DNA from: an uncultured cyanobacterium
GTDB lineage: Bacteria > Cyanobacteriota > Cyanobacteriia > Cyanobacteriales > Cyanobacteriaceae
NCBI GenBank assembly: GCA_963749915.1
Contig: CAVVOP010000021.1
Coordinates: 32,001-96,000, forward strand
Direction: 5' to 3'
DNA length: 64,000 nucleotides
This document shows positions 25,850 through 40,616 of the stretch, in pieces; position 1 is the stretch's first letter; each line of letters begins with the position of its first letter. The position numbers and the translations under genes are program-made. The notes under the pieces were generated by a model that had not been told where the DNA came from, did not search any database, and worked only from the letters and a program-made list of their open reading frames with translations.

Positions 25850-26015
25850 CTGACTTTTCACGGGATCTTTTTCTGCTCTCAGGCGATCGCCAAATTCCCC
25901 CTCTCCAAGCCAGACTCTTTCGTTGTCCATTATCATTAAGCAGAGATTATTGAGAATCAGCCTGGGAGGGAAACCCTTATTTGAACGGGTTTTCAGAAAT
26001 GCCGTGAAAAGTCAG
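25850..26015. mobile_element. 166-bp MITE with a 14-bp perfect TIR and a 10-bp TSD
   Basis: TIR CTGACTTTTCACGG / CCGTGAAAAGTCAG; flanking direct repeat ACCAGCAGAT at 25840-25849 and 26016-26025. Confidence 0.93.
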
Positions 26016-33239: not shown

Positions 33240-34880
33240 CTATTGGGCATTTTGTCTTTCATAATTAGAAATATTTCCGAGGGTATAAGTAGGAGGTGTT
33301 ACATTTGGTACGGTGCGATTTTCTGTGACTTGATAGTCTCCATAATTCCCTACCGCGTCAATTTTTACTTTTGAGTTACCAGAACTAGAATCCCATGCTT
33401 TAATCCACATAGAACCTCTAAAGTTTCCGTTAGTGTTCCCACCACCATTAACACTACCAGTGGCGGCGGGGGCATGAACAAAAGCTTTTACCGTACCAGT
33501 ACCGTTAAAATGAGCTTGTAAGGTGGGACAATTTGTCCCCACCGTTAATGAACCACAACCATATTTTGTATTGTTGCCAGTAGTGTAAGTATTGCCATAA
33601 ATTTGTAAATTTTTTGATGTATTACTAGCACTAGGGTTAATATCAGGATTACCACTTAGGTTAATATTACCTCTAACATAAAAAATAACTTTTGCGTTAT
33701 CTGCAATAGTTACATTACTACCGCCACTAATATTTAAATTATCGATAAGGTAATGATAGTAGCCATTCGCATCAGGAGTATCTCCGGGGGTAGCAGGAAC
33801 AGCAGGAACAGCAGGGGTTTTTATGCTACCATTCCCTTTATAAGTAGCGGGAATTGCTGGTGTACCAGGTGTCCCGGGTCGGGGGAATGTCATCCCGGCA
33901 ACAGACCCTGTAACGGTATAGAGGTTTGATGTGGGTAACGGAGGTGTATCGGGGATTGGTTCTTTCGAGATAGAAATAGATTGAGTACTTGTATTGTAAA
34001 GGTTACTGTTATCCGGTGCACCTGTTATTTGTGCCAGAGTTTTACAGGTAGGAGAATAAATTTTTATATTTCCATTAACTTTATCATTTGCCCAATCATT
34101 ACCCACTTCAGAAATCCATAGACCCGGTACCTGTTCCGCAGTAGAGAGAATGGTTCCACCACCACCCCCACTGGCCACATTAGCATCAAAGTCCACTTTT
34201 ATTTGTGCTTTTGAAGCGTTGTTTGATCCTACCTGTCCTTGAATAGTTAGACTAGCTTTGCTATTAGCACCTGTCCCACGACTATAACTTACAAGTTTAA
34301 ATTTTCCTTTATCAGGATTATTCGGATCTAATGCAACCCAAGTATTATTGGCATTAATAATATTAGATGGTACTTTGATTGCTCCACCTTGCAATTGGTC
34401 AATGATTTCCTGAGCCTTTTGAGATGTTAAAGATGTGCCAGCAGTGGTTCCAGAGCTAGGACTACAACTATAAGTAGCGGTGCTGGTGGTTCCTGATGTT
34501 CCCGCCGCCGTGTTTGCGGCATTATTTAATACTGTGTCTAGCTGAGTTGGTGCCGTGTTAGCGATAGTCGTCCATTCATTGTGGCTTGATACCATAGCTA
34601 AACGAGGCTCTTTAATAAATAAACTTTGCATTCTTGTCACCCCAGTTTCAGCAACAGCAATCGCTTGTTTAGTCATCTCATCAGACACTACGTTCGTTTT
34701 TAATTGATTTGCTTGAGCGATAGCTAAAGTGCCCGTGCCCAGACCCAATAAACCTATCGCTGTCCCAGTTATAAGGGTTGTACCCGCTTGATTCTGTTTC
34801 TTGATAGAGAGTAATCTATAGACAAAATTTGATTTTAGGGTGTTTTTTTGGTTATTGCTCTGGCGATTGTTGAATAACAT
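33240..34880 (-). CDS. PilX-like minor pilin / pilin-associated surface protein
   Basis: Class III signal-like QAG^TTLITGTAIGLLGLG, then QAIAVAETGVTR; Gly/Asn-rich C-terminal domain (FYVRGNINLSGN, AFVHAPAATG). Confidence 0.6.
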   Translation of the reverse strand: MLFNNRQSNNQKNTLKSNFVYRLLSIKKQNQAGTTLITGTAIGLLGLGTGTLAIAQANQLKTNVVSDEMTKQAIAVAETGVTRMQSLFIKEPRLAMVSSHNEWTTIANTAPTQLDTVLNNAANTAAGTSGTTSTATYSCSPSSGTTAGTSLTSQKAQEIIDQLQGGAIKVPSNIINANNTWVALDPNNPDKGKFKLVSYSRGTGANSKASLTIQGQVGSNNASKAQIKVDFDANVASGGGGGTILSTAEQVPGLWISEVGNDWANDKVNGNIKIYSPTCKTLAQITGAPDNSNLYNTSTQSISISKEPIPDTPPLPTSNLYTVTGSVAGMTFPRPGTPGTPAIPATYKGNGSIKTPAVPAVPATPGDTPDANGYYHYLIDNLNISGGSNVTIADNAKVIFYVRGNINLSGNPDINPSASNTSKNLQIYGNTYTTGNNTKYGCGSLTVGTNCPTLQAHFNGTGTVKAFVHAPAATGSVNGGGNTNGNFRGSMWIKAWDSSSGNSKVKIDAVGNYGDYQVTENRTVPNVTPPTYTLGNISNYERQNAQ

Positions 34881-37722: not shown

Positions 37723-38196
37723 ATGTCTTTAGTTCGTTTCTATCCCTTATCAGATATTGATGGTTTGCATCGTCAAATGAATCGACTTTTTGACGAAATA
37801 ACTTCTTGGGACAAAACTAGTAGTAATGTATTACAGCCGTCAGTAGAGCTGTTGGACAATAAAGATAGTTTAACTTTGAGAGTTTTAGTGCCGGGTATTG
37901 AGAAAAAAGATCTCGATATTAGTGTTACCAGTGAAGCAGTGAAAATTAGTGGCGAATACCGTCATCAAGAAGAACAGAAGGATAGTGGTTATTATCTTTC
38001 TGAATTTAATTATGGTAAATTTGAGCGTACTATCAATTTGCCTGTGGCTGTTCGCAATGAAGAAGTCATTGCTGACTATACTGATGGTATTTTAACCCTA
38101 ACTTTGCCGAAAATTGAAGAAGCTAAAAATAAAGTATTTAAAGTTAGCTTGGAGGGGGATAATCAACCCACCTTGGATGCGAAAGCCGATCAGTAA
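37723..38196 (+). CDS. hspA: Small heat shock protein (Hsp20)
   Basis: RQMNRLFD, SEFNYGKFERTINLP and YTDGILTLTLPK motifs; GGAGG RBS. Confidence 0.88.
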   Translation: MSLVRFYPLSDIDGLHRQMNRLFDEITSWDKTSSNVLQPSVELLDNKDSLTLRVLVPGIEKKDLDISVTSEAVKISGEYRHQEEQKDSGYYLSEFNYGKFERTINLPVAVRNEEVIADYTDGILTLTLPKIEEAKNKVFKVSLEGDNQPTLDAKADQ

Positions 38197-38242: not shown

Positions 38243-38268
38243 GCCTGTCCTCGGTGGCAGGTTTTTTT
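38243..38268 (+). terminator. Terminator after hspA
   Basis: GCCTGTC-CTCGGT-GGCAGGT followed by a T run. Confidence 0.7.
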
Positions 38269-38462
38269 ATTATGGTTCTCTCAGACTGGTTGTGATCAAT
38301 TAATTACTACTTTCAATACCTTCGTCAAAAAAAGATCATAAAAAGTACCAGTATTTCTCTCTTCCTTGTCTACTTTCCTTCCTTGTCCCCCAAGTCTCAC
38401 CCTCACCAGAATCTAATTGTAAAAAACCTAACCTGATAAGCCCCTAACCCCTAATACCTAAC

Positions 38463-39017
38463 CTAACTTTTCACGGCATCTTTTTCGGTTGACAGGTGTT
38501 AGGTGTTAGGGGTTGGGTGTTAGGATTAGGGATTGAGGATAAGCTTTAATAGTTGAACAGTCAAAAAAAACACTTAGAAACTGATGGGAATACAATCCTA
38601 TAGAGACTTAAAGGTTTGGCAAACAGGCATGGATTTAGCAGAAGAATGCTACTTAGTTACTCGCAATTTCCCCAAAGAAGAACTTTACGGGTTAATTTCT
38701 CAGATTCGTCGAGCATCAGCCTCTATTCCCGCCAATGTCGCTGAGGGGCATGGTCGAAAAACCCGAAAAGAATATATACAGTTTTTATACATAGCACAAG
38801 GCTCTCTTAAAGAATTAGAAACTCATCTTTTATTGTCGAAAAGGGTAAAGTTAGGAGAGGGGAAAGTCATTGATTCTCTTTTAAATAGATGTGAATCCCT
38901 CGGAAGATTATTATCAGCATTGATTCGTGCCCTCGAAAACAAAAACTGAATTTTCCCTATCACCCAACCCCTAACACCCAAACCCTTTCTCAGGGAAAAG
39001 ATACCGTGAAAAGTCAG
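38463..39017. mobile_element. 555-bp non-autonomous TIR element carrying a four-helix-bundle gene
   Basis: TIRs CTAACTTTTCACGGCATCTTTT / AAAAGATACCGTGAAAAGTCAG; 10-bp TSD AATACCTAAC at 38453-38462 and 39018-39027. Confidence 0.9.
38584..38949 (+). CDS. Four-helix-bundle protein (23S rRNA IVP/bAvd-like family)
   Basis: YRDLKVWQ, FPKEELYGLISQIRRASASIPANVAEG and FLYIAQGSLKELETHL motifs. Confidence 0.92.
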   Translation: MGIQSYRDLKVWQTGMDLAEECYLVTRNFPKEELYGLISQIRRASASIPANVAEGHGRKTRKEYIQFLYIAQGSLKELETHLLLSKRVKLGEGKVIDSLLNRCESLGRLLSALIRALENKN

Positions 39018-39098
39018 AATACCTAACACCTTTTATTCAGTATCTATGTACTGGTGCAAGATGTGAGTAGGAGAGGGTTAATTGTTAATTGTTAATAA

Positions 39099-40616
39099 CT
39101 AAAATGAAGCTCTACCATAAAGATAGGTTAAATATTTGAGGTGTTCGCTAATATCGTCAGTTAAAACATCCTCTTCATAGCGCCAACTCCAATTATCTTC
39201 AGTGGTACCCGGGGTGTTCATTTTCGAGTCTGAACCTAACCCTAACAGATCCTGCACAGGGAAAACAGCCAAATTGGCCACTGAGGATAATGCTAAACGA
39301 ATTAAACTCCAGTGGATTCCTTCATTACAAATACCGCCGAGAAAATCTACTACTCTTTGTCTTTCACTAAAGGATCGTTTTTCGAACCATCCCACCGTTG
39401 TATCATTATCGTGAGTACCTGCATAAACAACACAGTTACGATCGGTGTAATTATAAGGTAAAAAACCATTAGCTCGATCAGAGTCGAAGGCAAAATGTAA
39501 AACTTTCATCCCGGGAAATTTATACTTATCTCGTAATTCTTCTACTTCTGGAGTAATAACGCCTAAATCCTCCGCCACAATGGGTAAAACGCCTAACTCT
39601 TGCTCAAGAATGGTAAAAAACTTATCGCCCGGTGCTTCTAGCCATTCCCCATTAATAGCAGTGGTTTCTCCCTCAGGCACAGCCCAATAAGCCTCAAAGC
39701 CTCGAAAATGGTCAATACGCATAATGTCAACATATTCTAACATTCCTTTAATGCGTTGCACCCACCATGCAAAATCGGTTTTTTCTAGCACCTCCCAATC
39801 ATAAACAGGATTACCCCATAACTGACCAGTGGCACTAAAATAATCAGGTGGAACACCAGCCATTAAAGCCGCCGCACCCGTTTTGACATCTAAACAAAAA
39901 ATCTCTTGATTTGCCCACACATCAACACTATCATGGGCGACGTAGATAGGAATATCTCCAAAAATTTTGACGTTTTTCTCGTTGGCATATTCTTTTAAGT
40001 TTCGCCATTGTTTAAAGAAGCTAAACTGTAAAAATTTATGATAGAACATTTCATGACCAAGTTTGATTTGCCATCGGGAAATCGCAGAAGGGTTACGTTT
40101 AGCAATAGATTCATCCCACTGAAACCAAGCACTACCTTGATGATAGTCTTTTAACGCCATGTAGAGAGAAAAATCTTCCAACCAGTAACTATAATCTTCG
40201 CAAAATTGAGCAAATTCTTGTTTATATTCGTCGTCGTCTCGTGCTTGGAATGCTTCAAAAGCTTTACGATATAGGGGATATTTTTCCTTAATGACTAAAT
40301 CAAAGTTGACACGGGATTTTTTTTCTTTCTCAAAAACGGTTTTAACGGTTTCTAAATCTTCTTCTGTTAATAAATCATCACCATAAAGAATATCTGGGCT
40401 AATCATTAAGGGATTTCCGGCTAAAGCAGAATAGGCCAAATAAGGAGAATTTCCCGCACCAGTAGGCCCCAAAGGCAATATCTGCCAAACCTGTTGATCA
40501 CCTTTTTCCAAAAAATCCACGAATCGATAAGCACCATTTCCTAAATCACCAATGCCATAAGCACTAGGTAAGGAGGTTGGATGTAGTAAAATACCACTCA
40601 GTCTGCGATCGAACAT
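39099..40616 (-). CDS. malQ: 4-alpha-glucanotransferase
   Basis: SGILLHPTSLP, GVPPDYFSATGQLWGNP, RIDHFRG, AEDLG and GTHDNDT motifs. Confidence 0.96.
   Translation of the reverse strand: MFDRRLSGILLHPTSLPSAYGIGDLGNGAYRFVDFLEKGDQQVWQILPLGPTGAGNSPYLAYSALAGNPLMISPDILYGDDLLTEEDLETVKTVFEKEKKSRVNFDLVIKEKYPLYRKAFEAFQARDDDEYKQEFAQFCEDYSYWLEDFSLYMALKDYHQGSAWFQWDESIAKRNPSAISRWQIKLGHEMFYHKFLQFSFFKQWRNLKEYANEKNVKIFGDIPIYVAHDSVDVWANQEIFCLDVKTGAAALMAGVPPDYFSATGQLWGNPVYDWEVLEKTDFAWWVQRIKGMLEYVDIMRIDHFRGFEAYWAVPEGETTAINGEWLEAPGDKFFTILEQELGVLPIVAEDLGVITPEVEELRDKYKFPGMKVLHFAFDSDRANGFLPYNYTDRNCVVYAGTHDNDTTVGWFEKRSFSERQRVVDFLGGICNEGIHWSLIRLALSSVANLAVFPVQDLLGLGSDSKMNTPGTTEDNWSWRYEEDVLTDDISEHLKYLTYLYGRASF

Follow-up and report, generated by a model that had tools for sequence, protein, structure and literature searches.

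A 555-bp cyanobacterial transposon with IS4-type ends carries a four-helix-bundle gene set between inverted heptamer arrays

The DNA considered here (the window, a stretch of 64,000 nucleotides from an uncultured cyanobacterium whose genome we call G000) contains, between two host genes, a non-autonomous transposon of 555 bp (window 38463-39017) which carries a gene for a four-helix-bundle protein. To its left lies the Hsp20 gene hspA (37723-38196, plus strand), followed by a terminator-like hairpin (38243-38262); to its right, and convergent, is malQ, encoding a 4-alpha-glucanotransferase (39099-40616, minus strand). The unit is built of nested parts, and all of these were present, in the order and at the places that a preliminary description of the locus had given them. 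A 10-bp target-site duplication, AATACCTAAC, stands on both sides (38453-38462 and 39018-39027, plus strand). Inside it are the terminal inverted repeats (TIRs), the left one (38463-38484, plus) being of IS4-family (Tn5-like) type and the right one (38996-39017, minus) 20/22 identical to it; both sit in a longer inverted repeat of 62 nt (81%). A linker (38485-38493, plus), near-identical to one that closes a related element in genome G028, leads from the left TIR to the left heptamer arm (38494-38525, plus), made of AGGTGTT/AGGGGTT units, to which the inverted right arm (38955-38986, minus) is identical at 27 of 32 positions with an 18-bp perfect core. The intact open reading frame (ORF) for the 121-aa protein lies between the arms (38584-38949, plus). 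A transposase is absent from the unit, which holds only this ORF and a 68-codon antisense frame, and neither a plus-strand promoter consensus nor an Rfam match was found within the 555 bp. The arrangement is not a chance one, since it occurs as 12 full-length copies in the genome and its RNA fold has a z-score of -3.8.

Ten of the 12 full copies in G000 are identical, one has one substitution and one is frameshifted. Target duplications of 10 bp flank six copies and of 9 bp flank two, every target being different. Three filled sites can be paired with empty ones: the copy on C34 with C31, the copy at C8:403306 with C8:307365, and a further duplication-flanked element, identical to the 555-bp unit, at locus L047, the corresponding site in G000 (C8:~438400) being empty. 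The contig with this last copy (17.6 kb) was binned with another genome, G031, and is 98.5-99.9% identical to G000 throughout, while other G031 loci are 65-73% identical; we therefore read L047 as coming from a conspecific strain, a misbinned conspecific contig being the likelier explanation, and do not count it as cross-species transfer. In an independent assembly (X1) the depth over 38463-39020 is 20.4, as against 2.9-3.4 on the flanks, and two sequencing runs (X7 and X9) contain the element joined to flanks which are not present in G000; the X9 variant has seven listed substitutions and one additional heptamer in the left arm. A 22-nt end motif occurs in 8/401 genomes of the order (G000 included) and in 0/19 family relatives, which argues that the burst is recent. 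Matches to hspA and malQ lie at separate places in the 30 relatives searched. That this is a mobile unit without a transposase, as had been proposed, is borne out by the copies, duplications and empty sites, all observed directly, as are the match of its ends to a resident IS4-family element and one candidate transposase with catalytic motifs.

Some of the copies show features of their own. Those at C10:10975, C26:7159, C25:21177 and C34:37838 break into long ORFs or other mobile elements, and one flank is common to the C19 and C25 copies, which suggests an element-linked rearrangement. A scrambled partial copy (C21:307346-307687; 81%, 22 gaps, reshuffled pieces) may be the product of decay or of assembly noise.

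The candidate helper is a 1502-bp insertion sequence (IS) at C20:161811-163312 of G000, whose ends match those of the unit, its left end being identical to the left TIR at 18 of 19 positions. Its transposase is of the IS4 family (NF033590, 335 bits; N-terminus NF049926 IS4_FS_Nterm and PF14706), and the acidic and Y-R-E-K motifs of a DDE transposase are visible in an alignment of the protein; these motifs presumably map onto the Tn5 residues, and we take the IS to belong to the IS50/Tn5 subgroup. The transposase ORF (L001:598-2000) is split at a T-run, a candidate programmed frameshift or slippage site. A frameshift falls at the same point in four related copies, about 76% identical, other relatives being in frame, and this shared point argues for programmed recoding of the transposase.

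The same ends are found in G000 on three MITEs (miniature inverted-repeat transposable elements) of 166-189 bp, on one 125-bp unit and on one full IS. One of these MITEs lies in the window itself (25850-26015, 166 bp) and has its own 10-bp duplication (ACCAGCAGAT). The preliminary description had matched the TIRs of the 555-bp unit to this MITE, which it called empty: the shared end family holds, but the MITE is not an emptied or deletion derivative of the unit, as its interior is unrelated and beyond about 16 nt one of its ends is no longer similar. In G028, too, MITEs without a gene are common in this end family. Both ends of the 555-bp unit resemble one end type, and units with two left-type ends of this IS family were seen elsewhere (L179:773-1171 in G236 and L148:934-2670 in G031). 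The idea that the stem had served to copy one IS end in mirror image onto the opposite side was considered and dropped, as it is inseparable from descent from IS relatives with two similar ends, such as those at L148 and L179.

The target of the present copy is itself composite. Its left part is a CCTAAC-type heptamer run that predates the insertion (38428-38462), and the remainder (39028-39067, minus) is the terminus of a MITE-like element that is older, dispersed and distinct in its terminal motif; four uninterrupted paralogues of it span the junction, and the heptamer run is its subterminal array. It has been suggested that the target is a CCTAACA-type array, and that is true here, the run being of the same class as the arms of the unit, which could mean that homology directs the element to heptamer arrays and that it spreads them in this way. 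We regard this as very improbable indeed. This is the sole such target among 13 insertion sites, where a background of 1.3% per site gives about a 16% chance of at least one; the run is part of an older element whose paralogues are uninterrupted; and no TIR-bearing deletion derivatives that left arms behind were seen in G000. Targeting of heptamer arrays is thus largely refuted.

The older MITE-like family also occurs at C21:566536 (183 bp) and C8:151108 (314 bp). It has a terminal motif of its own, AT-rich duplications of 4-5 bp and, near its termini, heptamer arrays that fall into several classes, and some 20-32 of its ends are present in G000; a hidden Markov model search of the older target element found no four-helix remnants. 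A dispersed repeat of CCTTGTC type, present at about 25 places in G000, lies just to the left of the target (window 38357-38434). In reverse complement it precedes genes of another four-helix subfamily at two places (C8:328855 and C30:23133), and a sequence resembling it comes after an IS4-type end at C8:767476.

The protein carried by the unit belongs to PF05635 (E 1e-38), with TIGR02436 and PRK12275 also over cut-off, while the bAvd profile falls below it (22.3 bits against 40, E 2e-4). The predicted structure has four helices (predicted local distance difference test score, pLDDT, 96.6) and matches the fold of Xcc0516 (template modelling score, TM, 0.91; 38% identity) and that of Bordetella phage Avd (4DWL; TM 0.78, 12% identity); profile searches found no catalytic family match. 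Between the gene and its three nearest named relatives for which it was computable, the ratio of non-synonymous to synonymous substitution rates (dN/dS) is 0.07-0.16, pointing to strong purifying selection. As judged from its fold and its charge only (isoelectric point 9.4), the protein is likely to be a pentamer binding structured nucleic acid, probably the arm stem. About 18 further PF05635 family loci or fragments are present in G000.

The larger result concerns the arms. From 242 TIGR02436 matches in 121 cyanobacterial genomes, 110 loci were drawn from the 150 matches listed, and 106 of these were kept after one G000 locus and three with short flanks had been dropped; the sample is biased to high-scoring genes and kin in it are not independent. 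Across all bacteria, 80 loci were fetched and 72 kept, eight having short flanks. Arms were called paired where the flanks aligned as an inverted repeat with a score of at least 16, a measure adopted because a stricter detector missed the 555-bp element itself. Paired inverted arms stand at 85/106 cyanobacterial loci (among the matches listed) and at 43/72 loci across bacteria, as against 6/655 control ORFs of G000 (of these six, four are copies of the element or belong to the family); mispaired flanks gave 5.1% and 3.4%. The stricter detector finds arms at 60 of the 106 loci, with a period of 7 in 58 of the 60. Arm sequences are locus-specific, with 81 heptamer classes over the 106 loci, and are matched within each locus. 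In the nearest named relatives (79-86% identical; Moorena, Rivularia, Hormoscilla and Pleurocapsa records) the arms are present and the TIRs absent. The preliminary description had linked the four-helix family to inverted heptamer arms, and had allowed that other family members might prove to lack them; the counts above support the link, most loci being armed. On the sequences sampled, the association of gene and arms (about 80% of the cyanobacterial loci) is a family trait.

Heptamer arrays are abundant in G000 beyond these genes: it has 436 arrays of period 7, the other periods having 4-50. Six pairs of inverted arrays are spaced 364-431 bp apart, and five of them enclose family genes. The arm vocabulary is used by 151 of the 436 arrays, compared with 9% of random 7-mers; yet only 20 arrays have a family gene within 700 bp, and the class that ranks second in abundance is not in the sampled arm vocabulary. 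At C10:26708-28804 an arm-flanked four-helix gene without TIRs and a long reverse-transcriptase ORF stand about 1 kb apart, probably by coincidence; that ORF is open over 564 aa, has an equally scoring match on C12 and is probably a group II intron.

TIRs with an exact duplication of at least 7 bp enclose the family gene at only one of the 106 loci (among the matches listed; shorter duplications would escape), and where such ends do occur they are of several kinds. In G078 the same IS4-type ends surround a gene from a subfamily with 40% identity and arms built of 9-mers (a unit of 578 bp with a 9-bp duplication and an internal stop), and in G028 a deleted, broken relative. IS701-type ends with 7-bp duplications enclose family genes in G015 and on C27 of G000, the latter being a second TIR-bound four-helix unit in the source genome (L316; C27:123849-124373, 525 bp, intact ORF, single copy), and in G006 and G003 others are enclosed by ISL3-type ends, with duplications of 8 bp. 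Among the duplication-flanked copies in G015, 6/7 have truncated or broken ORFs; the IS701-ended units of that genome (L027-L032, L246, L301, L303) have multiplied with truncated ORFs, with further heptamer arrays nested. The preliminary description saw TIRs, arms and gene as one self-contained system, and here we differ from it, as the arms mostly occur without TIRs and no fewer than three unrelated IS families have supplied the TIRs. Judged from these comparisons, the outer ends are secondary captures and the inner module is older and widespread.

We propose, with good confidence, that the object has two layers: an old module of gene plus arms, and a recent IS4-ended shell, moved by cut-and-paste by an IS4-family transposase acting in trans, with the gene as passenger. 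The inner module would be a PF05635 gene between inverted 7-nt arrays, laid out like an ORF-bearing 23S rRNA intervening sequence (IVS) yet standing between ordinary genes, and the outer shell would be two recent IS4-family (Tn5/IS50-like) ends. A resident IS4-family transposase, which we infer both to be made through the conserved frameshift and to be the mover, would recognise these ends and cut out the 555-bp unit. Insertion would occur at sites that are only loosely specified, through a cut staggered by 9-10 bp, which would account for the duplications of that length. The gene within the transposon would be dispensable in cis: copies with broken ORFs have spread, and therefore the protein seems not to be needed there.

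Several observations weigh against this proposal. Four of the 12 copies have no duplication, which may reflect adjacent rearrangement or misassembly. The ORF is full-length in 11 of the 12, which is compatible with selection on it, and broken copies may be complemented in trans by the other family members in G000. The IS on C20 is present only once, lacks a target duplication and has its ORF split, so that it may not be the active mover, and a weaker relative of its transposase is present on C19.

The well-preserved ORF could alternatively indicate that the protein is a transposition accessory which aids the transposase in trans. This would explain its repeated, independent capture and why the unit, at 12 copies, outnumbers its relatives with the same ends (the three MITEs, the 125-bp unit and the full IS counted above). 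We think it improbable, given that the captors (IS4, IS701 and ISL3) are mechanistically unrelated, that 105 of the 106 sampled loci have no TIR with duplication, that truncated copies multiply in G015 and that gene-free MITEs with the same ends are common in G028.

Another explanation, which can hold alongside the two-layer proposal, is that the module of gene and arms is itself selfish: a pentamer might bind the paired arms, as RNA or single-stranded DNA, and promote the copying of the module or the formation of heptamer arrays and their matching, the IS ends being extra vehicles. We consider this a possible, if tentative, explanation. The arms are locus-specific yet matched on both sides, with mispaired flanks scoring in only 5% of cases; their period is 7 almost throughout; and the inverted array pairs and the shared arm vocabulary of G000 point the same way, as do the strong purifying selection on the gene and its repeated capture by unrelated IS families. 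The fold match to Avd is also suggestive, as the available text of one study describes an Avd pentamer in which five protomers contact an RNA stem-loop (10.1101/2023.10.23.563531). Against a selfish module stand the protein's want of a catalytic family match, the TIR-less modules, which come without a demonstrated duplication or empty site, the small share of arrays near a family gene and the common array class outside the sampled vocabulary. The Coxiella S23p protein, moreover, is probably not made in vivo, according to the part of PMC4990558 available to us.

A sense-RNA stem might be expected to leave G-U wobble pairs in the arms. No sense-strand excess was found: G-U-type mismatches exceed A-C-type ones in 14 cyanobacterial loci, with 37 showing the reverse, and in 14 against 16 across bacteria, a comparison weakened by the ambiguous register of tandem arrays and by kin that are not independent. 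A sense-RNA stem is thus unsupported by the wobble test, and this tells against the selfish module also.

The RNA of the unit is nevertheless predicted to fold with a terminal stem enclosing the ORF (the z of -3.8 given above), and that of the G078 unit does so with a z of -14.5. The long stem may therefore make the insert harmless in the manner of an IVS, through RNase III cutting it from transcripts or through precise excision from DNA, to which long inverted repeats would be conducive, the arms being damage-limiting. In Coxiella the IVS is cut out by RNase III at a stem of 28 bp (available text of PMC4990558), and TIR-less modules favour intervals between co-directional ORFs (52/100, against 274/941 control ORFs, with a crude ORF caller). 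We find such neutrality rather unlikely: an mRNA that is cut and not religated would be broken, copies bound by TIRs lie within ORFs and in both orientations, joints are absent in four sequencing runs (the raw-read run having no coverage of the stretch), and the G-U test is negative.

Elsewhere in the window, a 546-aa ORF (33240-34880) has a Gly/Thr-rich body and an N-terminus which we take to be pilin-like.

The mode of movement, then, is ordinary, and it is the cargo that bears on wider matters: whether ORF-bearing rRNA IVSs were ever mobile, what their protein does, and where cyanobacterial heptamer repeats come from. Here a module of gene and stem has been caught moving as DNA, with ten identical copies, a candidate transposase, empty sites and natural broken variants, so that whether the protein is required and whether it binds the arms become direct bench questions. 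As a more speculative proposal, gene plus inverted tandem-repeat arms could be an undescribed class of selfish module, whose Avd-like pentamer would bind the stem and help to copy or re-match the arms; it might be one source of the heptamer excess in cyanobacteria, xanthomonads and Bacteroidetes, rRNA IVSs might be copies which landed in rRNA, and the 555-bp unit might be a module hijacking IS4 ends. If the module is indeed selfish, the 555-bp unit would be the cleanest substrate on which to test it.

A literature search, its scope excluding most subscription papers and supplements, found no description of the 555-bp unit or of heptamer arms around the PF05635 family. Among known systems, the unit is a member of the non-autonomous IS derivatives, a gene-carrying MITE or mobile insertion cassette (MIC), the latter, also called transporter IS, being exemplified by MIC231. 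It shares with these IS-type TIRs, a target duplication, the lack of a transposase, filled and empty sites and a resident IS with the same ends, but differs in holding an intact conserved gene inside a second inverted repeat, built of repeats, and in that both its ends resemble one end type and not a left/right deletion pair. The cyanobacterial MITE Nezha is moved by an ISNpu3-like transposase (available text of PMC3184786); we set it beside the unit by description.

The arms are built from short tandem heptamer repeats of the kind known in cyanobacteria, presumably the short tandemly repeated repetitive (STRR) sequences. The excess and origin of heptamer repeats are treated as open in the available texts of PMC4692102 and PMC4679880, one of which proposes a repeat-binding protein as mobile agent; a term search of those texts found no mention of four-helix-bundle genes. 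With Avd the protein shares its four-helix fold, its basic character and the weak bAvd match under cut-off, but at 12% identity it is far less close to Avd than to Xcc0516. Membership of the diversity-generating retroelements was rejected, since neither a reverse transcriptase nor template and variable repeats lie in or beside the unit, and the five reverse-transcriptase matches of the genome are elsewhere. The closest likeness in build is to the 23S rRNA IVS of Leptospira and Coxiella (IVS/S23p), which, in the available text of PMC4990558, has a PF05635 gene, a similar size and a terminal stem, about 30 bp long, on which the ORF is looped out, and whose function and origin, where it bears an ORF, are there called unclear. 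The 555-bp unit, in contrast, lies outside rRNA, between hspA and malQ, and has IS ends with duplications and 12 dispersed copies; it is thus not itself a 23S rRNA IVS, though its core is built like one.
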